A stretch of 64,000 bases of DNA, taken from IMG/VR virus record IMGVR_UViG_3300031227_000013; one strand, given 5' to 3'. Each line of letters opens with the position of its first letter. Positions within the stretch are counted from its first letter, which is position 1. The position numbers were made by a program, and so were the translations under genes. This DNA comes from a virus. Positions 23,603 through 61,536 of the stretch are shown here, piece by piece. The notes beneath the pieces are model-generated. The model was not told the DNA's origin, ran no database searches, and worked only from the letters and a program-made list of their open reading frames with translations.

Positions 23603-24409
23603 TTATTCGGCACACGGAGAAGATTCTTCTTCGGTACTTGAGGATGTACTTTCGTCGACAACATCTTCGTCGTCTCCGCCCCATAAAAAGTCGCTGACAC
23701 TCTCCGCTTTAGGAAGATCGTTCTTTAAAACTTCCCCTGTAAAAGGATCGAGAGCTTGTGACTTGTTGTCTTCGATACTTCCGTCTACCAGCCCTTTTCC
23801 GAGGATATTGATTTCCTCGTCCCGGTCGATAAAGTCAGGTTCTTTGTATACTTCTACTTCGATGGGTATGTCTTTCGGAATATCGTCGCTTTGGATATTA
23901 GCAATGTCGAATACTTCGTCGACAATACTTCTATCAGATTTTTTTTCTTTCGGCATAGGAGTCGGAGCGATAGATAGATCCGCATCTCTAATAGGCTCTG
24001 CAGGTATACGAGGAAGTTCTTCGTTCTGAATCTCTGAGAAAGTACCCTTAGGTGCCGTAACTCTGGTAGGCTCTTCGTCGGGAGGAAGCTCTTCGTCTTC
24101 TTTGATATTCCTCGACATAGGTACAGGGGGTTTCGGGGCTGGTTTAGGTTTCACTACTTTTGGGGCTGGTTTGACAGCCTCCTCGATGCTCTCGACCTGG
24201 AGGTCTGTGAGCATAATAATCTCGACCCTCTTCGTCCTGATATCTTCGTCGATACATTTCCTATCCTTAACAACACTGGCTGATAAGGTGTAAATATCTC
24301 CGTCGATAATGACTTCGTCTTTAGCCGCGATATACAGCCCGTACTTAGGAACCCAGCTGTAATGCTGTTTACTATCCGTTGGATTAATAATTTTCGTCTG
24401 CACAATCAT
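23603..24409 (-). CDS. Acidic, Pro-rich hypothetical protein
   Basis: Long ORF with RBS (CAGGAAAAAAC) and upstream sigma70-like TTGTAA-N17-TATATT. Confidence 0.6.
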   Translation of the reverse strand: MIVQTKIINPTDSKQHYSWVPKYGLYIAAKDEVIIDGDIYTLSASVVKDRKCIDEDIRTKRVEIIMLTDLQVESIEEAVKPAPKVVKPKPAPKPPVPMSRNIKEDEELPPDEEPTRVTAPKGTFSEIQNEELPRIPAEPIRDADLSIAPTPMPKEKKSDRSIVDEVFDIANIQSDDIPKDIPIEVEVYKEPDFIDRDEEINILGKGLVDGSIEDNKSQALDPFTGEVLKNDLPKAESVSDFLWGGDDEDVVDESTSSSTEEESSPCAE

Positions 24410-24484
24410 GTTTTTCCTGCTCCTGATTTAAATTTGGTTTATCTAATTAATATAGCTATTTTATCAAGTGTTTACAACTATTGT

Positions 24485-24886
24485 CTAAGAAGAAGTTGCA
24501 GTCTTCTTGAGGGCTCTATCTTTGAGTATGATCTTATACAGTCTGCGTATAACACGATGTATCTCGGACTCCAGCATAGATTCATTAAAAGTACGATCTC
24601 TGGCAAGTACATCTATAGGGCCTAGTAAAGCATGTGCTATCTCCTCAAAAGCCGCGTTCTTAAGCATAGCATCTGTGACCTTAGAGTTCCCCCAGTTTTT
24701 ATTAAGAGTAACATTAGCCACAGCATCTAAATATCCATAAACACATGTAGCCATATCATCAGCCTCTTCACCGGACATCACTTCGTGAAAATAAAAAAAT
24801 TCTATGTCCGATAGACTAAAATAATTCACCCAGTGTTCACAATAACCGATAAACTTCTTAAAAGATTCCTCTGTTGTAACGTTCAT
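24485..24886 (-). CDS. Hypothetical protein with EEIAH (HExxH-like) motif; start corrected to MNVTTEE
   Basis: GGAGG RBS before 24886; the longer track ORF reads through the tRNA. Confidence 0.6.
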   Translation of the reverse strand: MNVTTEESFKKFIGYCEHWVNYFSLSDIEFFYFHEVMSGEEADDMATCVYGYLDAVANVTLNKNWGNSKVTDAMLKNAAFEEIAHALLGPIDVLARDRTFNESMLESEIHRVIRRLYKIILKDRALKKTATSS

Positions 24887-24920
24887 ATAAACCTCCTGTA
24901 ATATATTGCGAATTAAAAAT

Positions 24921-24997
24921 TGGAAGCGCAGACGGGACTTGAACCCGCAAACTCCAGGATGAAAACCTGGTGACTCTACCAATTCGTCTACTGCGCC
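24921..24997 (-). tRNA. trnE: tRNA-Glu (anticodon TTC) with encoded CCA
   Basis: Cloverleaf GGCGCAG/CTGCGCT, D-arm GAC..TGGTA..GTC, CCAGG-TTTTCAT-CCTGG, GCGGG-TTCAAGT-CCCGT, CCA. Confidence 0.95.
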
Positions 24998-25260
24998 ATA
25001 TTAAATTCTTTACCCAGAGCATCTATCACTACTCCTACTTCGCCTTTACCATCCGTAAAGGTTCCATCCCAGCAGCAGTAATCTCCACACCAGACATTAG
25101 CATATAGAACTTCTTTTAATATCTCGTGTGTTATTTCCGGATAATCTTTCTTCACTATTCCCAGGAGTTCGTCTTTTACCTCCTGAATAGGTCGTCCGTT
25201 ATATTCATCCTTATGTCTTAAAGAATGATAATAACCGAGTAATGCGTTAGATAAGTACAT
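24988..25260 (-). CDS. Hypothetical protein
   Basis: 90-aa ORF preceded by TTGAAT-N16-TATATT; its stop overlaps the tRNA 5' end. Confidence 0.5.
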   Translation of the reverse strand: MYLSNALLGYYHSLRHKDEYNGRPIQEVKDELLGIVKKDYPEITHEILKEVLYANVWCGDYCCWDGTFTDGKGEVGVVIDALGKEFNMAQ

Positions 25261-25334
25261 ATATTTAATATAGTATGGAAGGTTTATTATTCAAGTTGTT
25301 ATTCTATATATTTACATCTGAATTGTGTTATAGC

Positions 25335-25359
25335 TAAAAAAGTGGGATTAATCCCACTT
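25335..25359 (-). terminator. Intrinsic terminator
   Basis: Perfect hairpin AAGTGGGATTAATCCCACTT followed by T-run on minus strand. Confidence 0.75.
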
Positions 25360-25647
25360 CTTCCAATCCTCTCCGGAAAGATGTTCTTTACCCGGAAAAC
25401 GTTGTAATATTCTTCCTTCCTGGAAAAGACGGTTAAATACTTCTTCCGCCTTCTCTGGAAAGTCTTTCCAGTACACCTTCTTGTACTGGTCGATAACTTT
25501 CTGCCAGTTCTCACGTACCTGTGGATCTACCACAGAGGTGTTTCCCTCTATGTGATTCACTTCGTTAATGAGAACTTCTTCTTTACAGATATCTCCGATA
25601 CAAAAGCTTATCGAATGACCGACCTTCATTGGAATTTGAACTCCCAT
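25348..25647 (-). CDS. Hypothetical protein
   Basis: ORF with GGAGAGGAAG RBS. Confidence 0.6.
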   Translation of the reverse strand: MGVQIPMKVGHSISFCIGDICKEEVLINEVNHIEGNTSVVDPQVRENWQKVIDQYKKVYWKDFPEKAEEVFNRLFQEGRILQRFPGKEHLSGEDWKKWD

Positions 25648-25661
25648 GCTTCCTCTCCTTT

Positions 25662-26087
25662 TTATTTTAATCTGTATGGTTGATATGAATTAAGAAAGAT
25701 TCCATCGGTTTGTGCATTATGTGGTCTCCACCATTGTTCAGGACCACCCCAATACATTTCTACATTCGTAAAATCCTTCTTAAATTCTTTCTTTATTTCT
25801 TTGCGTTCCTTGTCTGACATAAGCCCTAAAGGAATAATAGCATTAGACTTAACTTTGTCAGATACTAATTTAAGTTTGTGAGACCAGTATGCCTGATAAT
25901 CCAGGAAATAGTACTCAGACCAATGATATACCGGTACACTCTCCTTATCCCTCCAGGACTCATTTATTAATATCATCCATCCTATATCATCGTCCTCATA
26001 TCTCTGAACGTGTCCTGCTTTTATTATCTCTTTATGCTCTTCACTGGACATCTTTCCCCAGACTACTCCTTTGCTATGTCTGTCCAT
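25662..26087 (-). CDS. Hypothetical protein
   Basis: ORF with GGAGAGAGG RBS. Confidence 0.6.
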   Translation of the reverse strand: MDRHSKGVVWGKMSSEEHKEIIKAGHVQRYEDDDIGWMILINESWRDKESVPVYHWSEYYFLDYQAYWSHKLKLVSDKVKSNAIIPLGLMSDKERKEIKKEFKKDFTNVEMYWGGPEQWWRPHNAQTDGIFLNSYQPYRLK

Positions 26088-26400
26088 ACTTCCTCTCTCC
26101 CTTTTTAAGGGTTTTCAACTCCCTTTTGACAGTGGTTAGTTCCCTAGACATCTTCTCCACTATTAATTTGGTATGCTGAATCTCTCTATTTTTTTCTATG
26201 ATTTTCACAAGACTTTCACAGCCCTGTTCATCTAATGGGGTACCATATTCCACTGAGATGGGGACTATGCTTATGAGCTCGTCTGTACTAGCTAATCTAT
26301 TATCTACCTCATCGCTCTGTTCATCTCTGTAGACATAGACCTTGTGTATTCGGTTTAGAATAATATCTTCGAACTTAAACATGTAACCTTTTCTAATCAT
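26074..26400 (-). CDS. Hypothetical protein with C-terminal coiled coil; start corrected to MIRKGY
   Basis: GGAG RBS before 26400. Confidence 0.55.
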   Translation of the reverse strand: MIRKGYMFKFEDIILNRIHKVYVYRDEQSDEVDNRLASTDELISIVPISVEYGTPLDEQGCESLVKIIEKNREIQHTKLIVEKMSRELTTVKRELKTLKKGERKYGQT

Positions 26401-26416
26401 ACTTCTTCTCCTTTTT

Positions 26417-27127
26417 TTAAATACATCCGCCACAACATGTATAATCACAGTTATGACATCCTCCATTTGTGTACTCATCCATATCACCACCGTCGTCTAC
26501 TGCTTTACCCATCTGACCCCCACAATTTGGACAGCACTGGGTGTCACAAGCAGGACAACTAGATGGGCACGGGCCTGAATATCTAGACAGCGGTACAACA
26601 GTTTTACTACCCCACTTATGGCCACAGTACCAGCACTCTAAAGTACTCATATTATATTTTTTTATAGGTTTGGACCTTGAAAAAGCTCCATATTTCTTTA
26701 CCAGAAATATATTGCTGCCGTCCTGTACTACAGAATCCAAATCTACTTCAGCCCCGTTAAGCTTTAAAATAAACGCCCCCGAAGTATATAAATGATGTAC
26801 CTCGGCTATTATCAAGATATCAAGCATAGATGTTCCTTTTTTAACATTTATATATGATAACTCTCCGGGAACCTGGCCTATTGCAATATTCATCATAGCC
26901 AGTCTATTAGCTACTGAATAATTAGCTTTAGTTTTGCTTACGCTGCTTGAATCGATGGTGCTTGGCTTAGGTTTACTTGTCTGTGTTAATGGACTTGATT
27001 TGCCTGTGCGGGCTGTGCTCTTTTTTGTAGCTACAGACTTAGAGAAACCTTTTAAGTTTGTAGTATCATAATATTCATTAGGGTCAATAGATGACCCGAA
27101 TAACCAACTCATTATTGTCTTTATCAT
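26417..27127 (-). CDS. Protein with central ubiquitin-like (MoaD/ThiS-like beta-grasp) domain and Cys-rich C-terminus
   Basis: IGQVPG..KGTSMLDIL..LKLNGAEVDLDSVVQDGSNIFLVKKYGA; then CWYC, CPSSCPAC, CCPNC, CHNC. Confidence 0.55.
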   Translation of the reverse strand: MIKTIMSWLFGSSIDPNEYYDTTNLKGFSKSVATKKSTARTGKSSPLTQTSKPKPSTIDSSSVSKTKANYSVANRLAMMNIAIGQVPGELSYINVKKGTSMLDILIIAEVHHLYTSGAFILKLNGAEVDLDSVVQDGSNIFLVKKYGAFSRSKPIKKYNMSTLECWYCGHKWGSKTVVPLSRYSGPCPSSCPACDTQCCPNCGGQMGKAVDDGGDMDEYTNGGCHNCDYTCCGGCI

Positions 27128-27147
27128 AATTCCCCACTTATTTAATG

Positions 27148-27175
27148 GTTATATATTTCTAGTATATAATGCCAA
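27148..27175 (-). promoter_or_regulatory. Conserved promoter-like motif, copy 1 (TTGGCATTATATACTAGAAATATATAAC)
   Basis: Near-identical to 45036-45063 and 61019-61046; each lies just upstream of an accessory gene block. Confidence 0.7.
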
Positions 27176-27198
27176 GAAAGGGAGCTTTATTAAGTAGC

Positions 27199-27222
27199 TA
27201 AAAGAAGGGGATTAATCCTTCT
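27199..27222 (-). terminator. Intrinsic terminator closing the putative ncRNA
   Basis: AGAAGG-ATTAATCC-CCTTCT hairpin plus TTTT on minus strand. Confidence 0.65.
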
Positions 27223-27540
27223 AAGTGGGAGCCACTCTCTACCACAGAGCACCTATCTCCCCGCTCATCCATACTGCACTCCCTTAGTGGGATACAGTGC
27301 ATCCTGGATTGGTAAATTCCAGGAGGTCCCATTTTAAGGTGGGCATCTCAGTGTCAGGAAAGATTCTTTCCCTTTTTATACCTCACTAAAGGCAACCCGA
27401 TAGAACCCACCAGGCAAGAGTTCCCCTATGCTTTTCAAGACAATTCAGCATAGGAACGGCGACAGATTACTTATTGTCCCCTGTGATATCTGTCTAATGT
27501 TTTCACTAGGAAAACTTACTACTTTCACAGGTGAGGTATA
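27223..27540 (-). ncRNA. Putative large structured noncoding RNA (about 320 nt), family unassigned
   Basis: ORF-free; 10-bp closing helix 27377-27386/27531-27540; at least 7 hairpins; GAAA tetraloop; complementary loops; flanked by promoter-like motif and terminator. Confidence 0.65.
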
Positions 27541-27545
27541 ATCCT

Positions 27546-27562
27546 CTAGTATATACTGACAA
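27546..27562 (-). promoter_or_regulatory. Variant copy of the conserved promoter motif (TTGTCAGTATATACTAG) upstream of the putative ncRNA
   Basis: Matches TTGGCATTATATACTAG at 15 of 17 positions. Confidence 0.5.
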
Positions 27563-27606
27563 AAAAACGCGATAAATTAAGCATATTCAGGCATGCTGAA
27601 AAGGCG

Positions 27607-28626
27607 TTATTCTATGTGATTACAATCGAACTGATACTCCTCAGGGATACTGTCGATGTACTCCAGTATCTGATCAGCCTTCTCTTTCTTTCTGGGTAGA
27701 TAGATAGTAGCATCCTTGTATAGGTATTCTATGGTGCGCTTTAGGTTTATGCGATTGAAGATATTAAGCCTATATATTTTGTTACATGGTTTTATACTTG
27801 AAAGTATTTTATTGTCTTCCAGTATATTCTGTACTGAAGCACAGAAGGGCTGGGTTGATATTAACTCTATGCGCGTATTATAAGTACCATGATTATCCTT
27901 CCTTTTTGAAAAAAGGAAACACCCGTCCCCATCTATGTATCCCCGTATAAAATGATGTTGAAGGGCTGGGGGTATCCAGTCTGGAAAGGTAAGCTTAAAT
28001 GTTTTTCTCTCTACAACACCTAGTTCCTGAGCCTTCTTATATAGTTTTTGATTATGTATAACTAATCTATAGTAAGGGCTGCTGGTAAATCCTTCTTTAC
28101 CAATATAAGGAGCTATATATGTAAGGGGTTTTTTACCTTCGTGAAGTTTGTTGTTATAGAAATCTAAAATATGTTTATCCTTTTCTATAAGTCCTAATAC
28201 TATCTCTCCTCCCGTACAACACCCATCTGCGTATAGAAGACCTAAAAAATATAACTTCTCTTCATTTAATACATCACCAAAATACTCTTCATCCACAGCA
28301 TACTGTCTATGAGCTTCAGAATGGCTTCTTATTTTTTCCCATTCTTTTAAACGTCTATTTAAAGTAGACTTCGATAGATTATATTTCTTTACCAATTCTG
28401 GCTCGGATAGAGTATTTTCTAAATAGTCTTTTATTATATTCTGTTTTACCTCCTCAGGTATTCTAAACTTCGTGGCGGTTTTTTTAGACCTAATTGTGAT
28501 ACCCTCTTTTAACAAACGATTACGGACTATGAAATTCGTAAGCCCCAATATTTTGGCTATCTTAGGGCAGCCAATTCCTTCGTGCACGTACATGTTAATG
28601 ATTGATTCAATCATATCTTGTTTCAT
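27607..28626 (-). CDS. Free-standing double-motif LAGLIDADG homing endonuclease with N-terminal HTH repeats
   Basis: YFLGLLYADGC and HFIRGYIDGDGCF motifs; YLYKDATIYLPRKKEK end; HTH-like GCPKIAKILG and SEPELVKKYNLSKSTL. Confidence 0.9.
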   Translation of the reverse strand: MKQDMIESIINMYVHEGIGCPKIAKILGLTNFIVRNRLLKEGITIRSKKTATKFRIPEEVKQNIIKDYLENTLSEPELVKKYNLSKSTLNRRLKEWEKIRSHSEAHRQYAVDEEYFGDVLNEEKLYFLGLLYADGCCTGGEIVLGLIEKDKHILDFYNNKLHEGKKPLTYIAPYIGKEGFTSSPYYRLVIHNQKLYKKAQELGVVERKTFKLTFPDWIPPALQHHFIRGYIDGDGCFLFSKRKDNHGTYNTRIELISTQPFCASVQNILEDNKILSSIKPCNKIYRLNIFNRINLKRTIEYLYKDATIYLPRKKEKADQILEYIDSIPEEYQFDCNHIE

Positions 28627-28647
28627 TTTAAAATCCTCCTTTTACTT

Positions 28648-28676
28648 AATATACCCTATATAATTGACTTTATCAA
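28648..28676 (-). promoter_or_regulatory. Sigma70-like promoter of the endonuclease gene
   Basis: TTGATA-N17-TATATT followed by AGGAGG RBS. Confidence 0.6.
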
Positions 28677-28697
28677 GTATAACTTTAAAAAATAGCT

Positions 28698-28737
28698 AAA
28701 AAAATCCTCCTTCTGAATTTACTCAAAAGGAGGATTT
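28698..28737 (-). terminator. Intrinsic terminator after the major capsid gene
   Basis: AAATCCTCCTT..AAGGAGGATTT stem followed by T-run. Confidence 0.85.
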
Positions 28738-28775
28738 GAATATCTACATACTTGGTTTATACTGAAGTAGTTATA

Positions 28776-29801: not shown

Positions 29802-30524
29802 TTAAGAAGTACTTGTACTTTTATTAACTGTTGAACTAGATTCAGTTGAACTAGATTGAGAACTTGTACTCTTACCAATCGTTGAACTAGAATCACTGGA
29901 TTGAGAACTTGTACTCTTACCAATCGTCGAGCTAGAGCTAGAACTATTACTTGAAGTAGAGCTAGAACTATTATCAAGAGGGCTTTTAGAACTATTCACT
30001 GCTGGACAAAATACAGTCCAGAAAGATATTACACTCTTGTTATCAACATTAGTTTCTGTACCTTTACTTACTACACCGACGATATGACAGTCAGTATAAT
30101 TATCCTTAGCGAGTGTGACATCACCGCGGTCTGCACCGGTAGCGAATGTCATCAGATCGTTAGGATTGTAAGTACCTGCGACGAACTCAGTTGTTTGAAT
30201 TTCATATCCGCCGGAAGCTACAATACCTGACTGTGCTCCACCGGACATGTTCCCGACATCTGAATTAGCATCGAACTCGTTCGTCCCCTGGATCATAAAG
30301 AGTGCCAGAGGTGCTTTATGCTGGAAAACCTGCGTGTTAGCCACACCTGAGCCCATACCTGCAACGAATTCACCGTTCGAATTCAGGGTCATTACACTGC
30401 CTTCATAGACCAATTCCCCAGATGCCGGAGCAGCTGAGTAGTCTAGAGCGTGCATCGTAGAACGACCGCTAAGCTCGATTAAAGAATGATCAAACATCTG
30501 ACCAGGAGTTAGGTTTCCAGCCAT
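29802..30524 (-). CDS. Capsid decoration/cement-like protein, paralog B, with Ser-rich tail
   Basis: Directly upstream of MCP; highly similar to 30540-31154. Confidence 0.65.
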   Translation of the reverse strand: MAGNLTPGQMFDHSLIELSGRSTMHALDYSAAPASGELVYEGSVMTLNSNGEFVAGMGSGVANTQVFQHKAPLALFMIQGTNEFDANSDVGNMSGGAQSGIVASGGYEIQTTEFVAGTYNPNDLMTFATGADRGDVTLAKDNYTDCHIVGVVSKGTETNVDNKSVISFWTVFCPAVNSSKSPLDNSSSSTSSNSSSSSSTIGKSTSSQSSDSSSTIGKSTSSQSSSTESSSTVNKSTSTS

Positions 30525-30539
30525 TTTTCAATCTCCTTA

Positions 30540-31154
30540 TTATGAAGTACTAGAACTAGATTTAGTACTTTGACTTGAACTTGAGTTAGAACTAGAACTG
30601 TAATCAAGAGGAGTTTGAGAACTATTTATTGCCGGACAGAAAACAGTCCAGAAAGATAGTACGCTCTTGTTATCAGCATTAGTTTCTGTGCCCTTACTTA
30701 CTACACCGACTACATGACAGTCGCTATAATTATCCGAAGAAATAGTAACATCGCCACGGTCATCGCCAGTAGCAAAAGTTAACAAATCATTAGGGTTATA
30801 AGTACCAGCAACAAATTCAGTTGATTGGATTTCGTATCCACCGGAAGCTACAATACCTGATTGTACTCCGCCTGACATATTACCTACGTCTGAGTTTGCG
30901 TCGAATTCGTTTGTTCCCTGGATCATAAAGATTGCCATAGGAGCGTTATGTTGGTACAATTGGGTATTAGCTACACCCGTGCCCATACCAGCAACAAACT
31001 CGCCGTTCGAATTCAGAGTCATCACGCTACCTTCGTAGGTTAGTTCTCCTGAGGCCGGAGCCGCAGAAAAATCCAACGCATGCATCGTAGAACGACCGCT
31101 GAGTTCAGCTAAAGAATGATCAAACATCTGACCTGGAGTGATTGTTCCAGCCAT
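30540..31154 (-). CDS. Capsid decoration/cement-like protein, paralog A, with Ser-rich tail
   Basis: MAGxxTPGQMFDHSL.ELSGRSTMHALD shared with paralog B. Confidence 0.65.
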   Translation of the reverse strand: MAGTITPGQMFDHSLAELSGRSTMHALDFSAAPASGELTYEGSVMTLNSNGEFVAGMGTGVANTQLYQHNAPMAIFMIQGTNEFDANSDVGNMSGGVQSGIVASGGYEIQSTEFVAGTYNPNDLLTFATGDDRGDVTISSDNYSDCHVVGVVSKGTETNADNKSVLSFWTVFCPAINSSQTPLDYSSSSNSSSSQSTKSSSSTS

Positions 31155-45035: not shown

Positions 45036-45063
45036 GTTATATACTTACAGTATATAATGCCAA
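45036..45063 (-). promoter_or_regulatory. Conserved promoter-like motif, copy 2, a perfect 9-bp hairpin with 3-nt loop
   Basis: TTGGCA-TTATATACT-GTA-AGTATATAA-C. Confidence 0.7.
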
Positions 45064-45089
45064 TAAAAGGAGATTAATTAAGGAGTTAC

Positions 45090-59499: not shown

Positions 59500-59515
59500 T
59501 TTCTTACCTTTAGTT

Positions 59516-61018: not shown

Positions 61019-61046
61019 GTTATATATTTCTAGTATATAATGCCAA
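61019..61046 (-). promoter_or_regulatory. Conserved promoter-like motif, copy 3
   Basis: Identical to 27148-27175; about 60 nt of flank near-identical to 45019-45082. Confidence 0.7.
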
Positions 61047-61056
61047 TAAAAGGAGA

Positions 61057-61536
61057 TTAATTAAGCTTCTCCTGTGTTATCTTGCTCTGCTTGTTCTTAG
61101 GAAGTTTCTTCTCGATACGGAAGCTTAGAAGCTTTCGACCGTTGACTGTGGGCTGTCCCAGTTCGTCTGTCCCTATATCTTTAACTTCCATCCGTTTGTT
61201 CTTGAACCTTCCGCCTAAAAGAATATCTCCTTTATTTATATCCAGGTCCAAAGCAGTCTTACCTATATATCCCATGTAGTATGCTGTCTTGTGCATAGAT
61301 CCTATCTTTCTGAGTTTGGATAAAGCGTCTGTATCGAATCCTACTGTAGTCTCCGCAAGATACTTGAGTCCTTCTCTGGTCTTGAAGAAGTCGTAGGGTA
61401 TAACAGCCCTAAGAGCCTCTTTAGCTTTACGAGCCTTAGCACTCCTACTCTGCAGCTGGGACATAGTAAGTCCCGTAGCTCTGGCATAGTCGTGTATGTT
61501 TCCTGCGAAGTTACGGAAGGAGGCTGTCTTGTTCAT
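61057..61536 (-). CDS. MNKTA-starting protein with a second internal leader (MHKTAYYMGYIGKTA) before a C-terminal beta domain
   Basis: Direct reading; C-terminal INKGDILLGGRFKNKRMEVKDIGTDELGQPTVNG. Confidence 0.7.
   Translation of the reverse strand: MNKTASFRNFAGNIHDYARATGLTMSQLQSRSAKARKAKEALRAVIPYDFFKTREGLKYLAETTVGFDTDALSKLRKIGSMHKTAYYMGYIGKTALDLDINKGDILLGGRFKNKRMEVKDIGTDELGQPTVNGRKLLSFRIEKKLPKNKQSKITQEKLN

Follow-up and report, generated by a model that had tools for sequence, protein, structure and literature searches.

Does the longest ORF-free interval in this phage sequence encode an RNA? The window, which is the whole stretch of 64,000 nucleotides that was analysed, contains a gap of 479 nt (27128-27606) between the end of a LAGLIDADG endonuclease gene (27607) and the start of an orphan gene of 236 aa (27127), read on the minus strand. 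No ORF of at least 70 aa is present in any frame of this gap and, by the same definition, the runner-up in the window is 312 nt long. The initial annotation had proposed a structured non-coding RNA of about 320 nt at this position, with kissing loops and with a promoter and terminator of its own. An RNA gene is also the reading that we prefer, at a little less than even confidence: the minus strand of 27199-27546 would be a self-contained cassette of a phage of ~185 kb and would produce an orphan non-coding RNA of ~340 nt, referred to as RNA1, that belongs to no known family. The features that define the unit and its surroundings are the following:

24410-28775, minus strand: lineage-specific insert of 4.4 kb between the major head gene and the next conserved gene.

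27607-28626, minus strand: gene for a free-standing HTH-LAGLIDADG homing endonuclease of 339 aa (Pfam LAGLIDADG_3, PHROG 4645).

27535-27581, minus strand: promoter-like block upstream of RNA1, CTTAA-N15-TGTCA-GTATATACTAGA, one of eight distinct copies.

27199-27546, minus strand: putative non-coding RNA body, RNA1, ~330-348 nt, 44.8% GC, with no ORF of at least 70 aa.

27195-27222, minus strand: intrinsic-terminator-like hairpin, AGAAGG-AUUAAUCC-CCUUCU, followed by UUUUAGCUA; pair probability 0.85-0.97.

27148-27194, minus strand: next copy of the promoter-like block, which serves the 236-aa orphan gene (26417-27127); direct repeat D1, at a spacing of 387 nt.

To judge from its sequence, RNA1 is well supported as a separate transcription unit without a credible ORF. 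No ORF with a well-spaced Shine-Dalgarno (SD) sequence was found in it, and no fragment of the gap in any of the six frames matched Pfam or PHROG, leaving no sign of a protein remnant in these databases. As had been proposed, the unit is non-coding and lies on the minus strand between a promoter-like block that recurs in the genome and a terminator of a recurring type. The 3' half of the gap (27225-27374) has a GC content of 51%, compared to a window mean of 41%, and ranks among the highest 3% of 150-nt windows.

The promoter-like block upstream of RNA1 has its core, CTTAA-N15-TG(G/T)CA-(G/T)TATATA(C/T)T, at 27557-27581, and the RNA1 copy can be written as CTTAA-N15-TGTCA-GTATATACT. Eight copies of CTTAA-N15-TGKCA-KTATATAYT were found in ~96 kb of the genome. 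Four are in the window (27557-27581, 27170-27194, 45058-45082 and 61041-61065), where 0.36 matches would be expected by chance, and four (at 699, 887, 1687 and 1959) are in L074, a further stretch of the same phage genome; position X of the window corresponds to position 169506 - X of the record. All eight are intergenic, lie on the coding strand and precede a unit, and five are followed within ~25 nt by the SD and start codon of an ATG gene. The block is often fused to the tail of the preceding terminator, TTTTAGCTA. Conservation over all copies stops at TATATAYT, suggesting that transcription of RNA1 more likely starts just past the block, probably within ~27547-27540. With this start, the 5' arm of the 11-bp helix described below would stay in the RNA. 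A sigma-70 reading of the block (TTGKCA-16-TATAAC) was rejected, as three copies, those of RNA2, unit3 (both described below) and the array promoter, do not conserve the TATAAC position. The loci fetched from related phages did not contain the block, except for two single matches that look like chance (L009 and L025). By this comparison, the punctuation of block and terminator is specific to this phage lineage.

The terminator at the other end of RNA1 also recurs. A hairpin and tail of the same type end the head gene and a 99-aa gene, and a near-identical hairpin with the tail TTTTAACTA is located at 59510. The tail itself, TTTTAGCTA, is common to RNA1 and bona fide gene ends, and also ends RNA2 and unit3 in L074. 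The earlier claim that RNA1 has its own promoter and terminator is, thus, backed by the recurrence of both elements in the genome and not by consensus scans. On this pattern, it is reasonable to regard RNA1 as a stand-alone RNA gene. The support for this gene comes from context, namely its boundaries, its lack of coding capacity and its GC content.

If so, transcription of RNA1 would start just past the phage-specific block and stop at the hairpin and UUUUAGCUA. The phage codes for its own RNA polymerase, as seen from Pfam Rpb2_6/Rpb1 domains on a product of 1998 aa, and we infer that this multisubunit enzyme may read the promoter-like blocks; it is probably what reads the one at RNA1. The product would most likely act in trans as a folded, stable RNA, such as a scaffold or decoy that binds proteins; a leader, an intron or an mRNA is improbable.

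A second ORF-free cassette, RNA2 (L074:1721-1958), has a GC content of 49% and lies ~17.8 kb past the end of the window. Its promoter is the same variant as that of RNA1 (TTTTTTTGKCAGTATATA; TTTTTTTGGCAGTATATA) and its junction of terminator and promoter is of the RNA1 type (CTTCTTTTAGCTACTTAATAAA...TTGGCA). Since RNA2 shares both the promoter variant and the junction, this punctuation seems to serve more than one non-coding unit of the phage. The local alignment of RNA1 with RNA2 was not significant, with 24 of 300 shuffles scoring as well, and RNA2 folded no better than its shuffles (z -1.5). A third unit, unit3 (L074:733-886), has flanks like those of RNA1 and RNA2 and probably codes for a 34-aa peptide (MSWKKALCIEMV...), as it has a well-spaced GAGGA SD. 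Because a unit with the same flanks is likely protein-coding, the punctuation alone is no mark of an RNA gene. It would mark transcription units in general, at least two of which appear to be non-coding.

This arrangement resembles the promoter-stem-loop (PeSL) units, which are mobile cassettes of T4-type phages. PeSL cassettes are short accessory units with repeated promoter and terminator sequences on either side, which can allow modular exchange, and here the junction TTTTAGCTACTTAAT...TTGGCA flanks RNA1, RNA2 and unit3. However, the signal sequences are different, and the genes in the PeSL cassettes described are small and code for proteins, not RNAs.

A broader proposal is that the phage has at least two unrelated GC-rich, ORF-free RNA genes, RNA1 and RNA2, which are served by a promoter for its own polymerase, form exchangeable cassettes beside tRNAs and selfish endonucleases, and found new families of structured RNA, for example decoys or scaffolds that act against host defence or in RNA repair. 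Taken as a whole, this proposal is speculative and we consider it unlikely. If RNA1 is real, it would mean that orphan genes for structured RNAs are carried as mobile accessory cassettes by large phages that have an RNA polymerase of their own, and annotation centred on proteins would be blind to cargo of this class. Two cassettes with shared expression signals would also make the punctuation motif a simple handle for finding more of them.

The initial annotation had left RNA1 unassigned, and our searches agree with this. At the Rfam gathering thresholds RNA1 did not match any family, ROOL, GOLLD and the group I intron included; tmRNA, RNase P, 6S RNA and riboswitches were also among the families tested. 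Across the whole window, tRNA-Glu was the sole match to Rfam 15 at the gathering threshold, and there was no Rfam match in L072 or L074. Searches at E ≤10 with 1.9 kb and with 493 nt returned only chance-level matches to unrelated eukaryotic families. No homologue of RNA1 was found by blastn against 50,697 phage records (INPHARED), by BLAST against five related phage records, or by nhmmer with the gap against 66 loci, which included loci from JGI metagenomes that surround 54 related head genes. IMG/VR was also scanned for exact patterns with three RNA1 segments, and GTDB genomes with two; these scans, which are blind to homologues below ~90% identity, found none either. Within 96 kb of the same genome, an nhmmer search gave no paralogue of RNA1. 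The search for antisense targets of RNA1 in the window gave only 11-12-mers, a length expected by chance.

Two groups of phage RNAs are similar to RNA1 in their setting. The small stable RNAs of T4 (species 1 and 2, rnaC/rnaD) are located in a tRNA gene cluster with the free-standing endonuclease segB. As proposed for RNA1, they are stand-alone non-coding RNAs encoded by a phage and have no known function, with tRNA genes and a free-standing homing endonuclease as their neighbours in an accessory region. In contrast to RNA1, which would be ~340 nt with its own promoter and terminator, the T4 RNAs have a length of ~120-140 nt and arise by processing of tRNA precursor transcripts; this is a comparison of descriptions. 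ROOL and GOLLD are large structured non-coding RNAs of phages and prophages that are often found near tRNA genes and have no known function. They differ from RNA1 in their much greater length (over 500 nt), their defined conserved cores and their many homologues, and neither covariance model matched RNA1 even at an E value of 10. The structures of ROOL and GOLLD are part of what bioRxiv 10.1101/2024.12.08.627333 reports.

Next, the fold of RNA1 was considered. The following predicted elements are the most relevant:

27376-27541, minus strand: 5' domain within an 11-bp helix, UUAUACCUCAC / GUGAGGUAUAA; ensemble probability 0.06-0.14.

27421-27456, minus strand: hairpin UUCCUAUGCU...AGCAUAGGGGAA, the most robust helix, with a core probability of 0.93; a perfect 8-bp inverted repeat.

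27338-27411, minus strand: pairing of GGUGGG (27411-27406) with CCCACC (27343-27338); probability 0.6-0.8, duplex energy -10.1 kcal/mol.

27275-27324, minus strand: two adjacent hairpins of the 3' domain, UCCUGGA/UCCAGGA and UGCACU..CCC/GGG..AGUGCA; probabilities 0.6 and 0.3-0.9.

Every helix listed in the initial annotation was found in its place, but most of those drawn were not favoured thermodynamically, and the specific architecture built from them was not upheld. The enclosing helix is present, with a length of 11 bp (27541-27531 with 27386-27376) instead of the 10 bp given, and its ensemble probability is low, as listed above. Among dinucleotide shuffles of the unit, 2% contained a perfect stem of at least 11 bp. 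The unit has five perfect stems of at least 7 bp, which is ordinary since 26% of shuffles had as many. In the Boltzmann ensemble, the UAUGCU/AGCAUA core, GGAAAG/CUUUCC, UCCUGGA/UCCAGGA and the terminator were robust, and CUGU/GUAG and GACAGAU/AUCUGUC had probabilities near 0. The same was true of both stems of the possible 3' pseudoknot (GAGCG/UGCUC and GGGAG/CUCCC), which is at chance level. The proposed kissing loops did not hold up either, as a 6-nt match between two loops is what chance would give over all loop pairs by our own estimate.

The GGUGGG/CCCACC pairing was absent from the earlier list of helices. Both the 3' arm of the 11-bp helix and the GGAAAG/CUUUCC hairpin (27356-27372) lie within its span, and it would be either an alternative fold or a pseudoknot; unless it is pseudoknotted, it excludes the 11-bp helix. 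The calculated energies differ by only ~5 kcal/mol, with -109.8 kcal/mol for the minimum free energy (MFE) structure, ~-106.6 for the 11-bp helix with the pseudoknot and ~-105.5 for the model in the initial annotation. The minus strand had been thought to be favoured by its structure, but the MFE z-scores were -2.9 for the minus strand and -3.2 for the plus strand, and energy, thus, picks no strand. Compared to 85 minus-strand windows of equal size from the genome, with a mean of -0.8 and a standard deviation of 1.4, the unit ranked tenth with a z-score of -2.5. By itself this predicted structure signal is modest. As modelled, thermodynamics points to no single fold for RNA1, and the ornate fold is not supported. 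A MITE-like reading of the 11-bp inverted repeat was also tried and rejected, as no other copies were found.

Among the alternatives to an RNA gene, the one that survives best is that the interval is a non-functional spacer. Recombination at the repeated punctuation of terminator and promoter would have left behind a cassette that is decayed or empty, perhaps transcribed, with a product that has no role. We regard this as possible, though on the doubtful side. The interval is an orphan sequence in a lineage-specific insert, and the neighbouring 236-aa gene also lacks a homologue, both in 5.8 billion proteins and in IMG/VR. Against the genome background the structure z-score does not stand out, the RNA1 block is the most diverged copy of the set (TGTCA), and its terminator hairpin is an imperfect version of the hairpin at 59510. 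Furthermore, RNA1 has GAGGAT where unit3 has its SD, with no start codon at a usable distance, as might be seen in a decayed small gene. However, the six-frame fragments hold no protein remnant, and the interval is GC-rich and is not drifting to the AT-rich background. It is rare for a phage genome to retain 350 nt of dead sequence, which also counts against a spacer. The cassette was identical in every contig of the phage that was read, from at least five samples and 57 index blocks, which likewise speaks against decay; since these copies are 100% identical across the region, they give no signal of selection. Data sets that contain the phage are JGI 3300023435 and 3300025669, ENA ERZ27315523, SRR7528379, SRR5458846 and SRR7528805, and its full genome of 185 kb is k141_1001112 of ENA ERZ27315523.

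One Logan contig of SRR7528805 (L014, 1.2 kb) corresponds to 28728-27526 of the window and covers only the endonuclease gene. It stops at 27526, within the 5' end of the RNA1 unit, and chance or a break in coverage or between variants could explain this.

Another explanation is that the interval acts in cis, as a long structured 5' leader or regulator of the 236-aa gene. Transcripts would read through a weak terminator, the stem of which is only 6 bp, and two UCCCACU(U/A)AG motifs would mask the unusual ribosome-binding site of the gene, UAAGUGGGG. One motif contains CCCACUUA (27229-27222), a perfect 8-bp complement of UAAGUGGG (27140-27133) in the ribosome-binding site (inverted repeat I3), and the second motif copy is at 27292-27283 (direct repeat D2). 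We find a leader improbable. Perfect 8-bp inverted repeats are expected ~1.75 times by chance in 479 nt, according to our own calculation, and four were observed. Also, the 236-aa gene has a full promoter copy of its own between the terminator and the ribosome-binding site, and no known riboswitch or leader family in Rfam matched.

In the relatives L001, L018, L019 and L020, whose head proteins are 82-90% identical to that of this phage, no more than ~100-200 nt lie between the head gene and the homologue of 23603-24409 that comes after it. Because the two are so close in the relatives, 24410-28775 is a lineage-specific insert. It contains the endonuclease gene, RNA1, five small genes of unknown function, a tRNA-Glu(UUC) gene (24921-24997) and a gene of 133 aa. 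The 141-aa and 133-aa genes are without a close relative in IMG/VR. The 133-aa gene (24485-24886, minus strand) adjoins tRNA-Glu and belongs to a widespread family of small proteins that has no Pfam or PHROG annotation; 764 cluster representatives (50% identity) matched its product at E ≤0.001, all of them at most 40% identical.

Elsewhere in the insert, a stretch of 680 nt (25161-25840, minus strand) contains a string of perfect 8-12-bp hairpins and is far more stable in its predicted fold than shuffles (z -7.9). It shares sequence with a 99-aa ORF (25348-25647), which has a strong SD and no assigned function. The stretch is either an unusually palindrome-rich gene or has a role at the RNA level as well.

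A partnership between RNA1 and the LAGLIDADG gene had been suggested as one reason for their proximity. The comparison with L015, which has a head protein 84% identical to that of this phage, argues against this, since L015 keeps a homologous endonuclease at the same site after the head gene and has no RNA there. This endonuclease (P0002, in L015 and L016, 41% identical) overlaps the next conserved gene by 4 nt. As it occurs without the RNA, the endonuclease gene is a free-standing homing gene at this site and a neighbour of RNA1, not its partner. In the window, a terminator-like T-run and the promoter-like block divide RNA1 from the endonuclease gene, an arrangement from which RNA1 reads as a cassette separate from the endonuclease.

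The same observations bear on the idea that RNA1 is a ribozyme of group I origin or an intron relic and moved together with the LAGLIDADG endonuclease; we consider this very improbable. An adjoining LAGLIDADG gene, directly upstream, is what such an intron would have, and a helix order can be drawn with the 11-bp helix as P3, the crossing GGUGGG/CCCACC as P7, GGAAAG/CUUUCC as P8 and three P9-like hairpins at the 3' end. However, RNA1 interrupts no gene and matches no model: RF00028 gave no match at E ≤10 with permissive filters in the 493-nt search. There are no exons to join, as the head gene (334 aa, full length compared to relatives) and the 236-aa gene are both complete, and the relatives have a short intergenic spacer at the site and no host gene. 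The promoter-like block separates the endonuclease gene from RNA1, and the homologous endonuclease of L015 is free-standing without the RNA. The junctions of 19 nt ('P7' to 'P3'') and 12 nt ('J8/7') also appear atypical of group I cores.

Lastly, a small protein encoded by a 27-aa GTG ORF (27528-27445) or a 44-aa ATG ORF (27332-27198) is scarcely to be expected: both ORFs exist, GAGGA lies upstream of the GTG, and the similar cassette unit3 probably codes for a 34-aa peptide with a good SD, but the SD is 13 nt from the GTG, the 44-aa ORF lacks an SD and extends across the terminator, and either ORF would leave most of the 348-nt unit untranslated.

Beyond the insert, the major head gene is immediately preceded by two paralogous genes in tandem (29802-30524 and 30540-31154, minus strand). 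Relatives have one gene at this position, which both of them match (69-72% identity to L001 4419-4979), and the pair (29802-31154) looks like a lineage-specific duplication.
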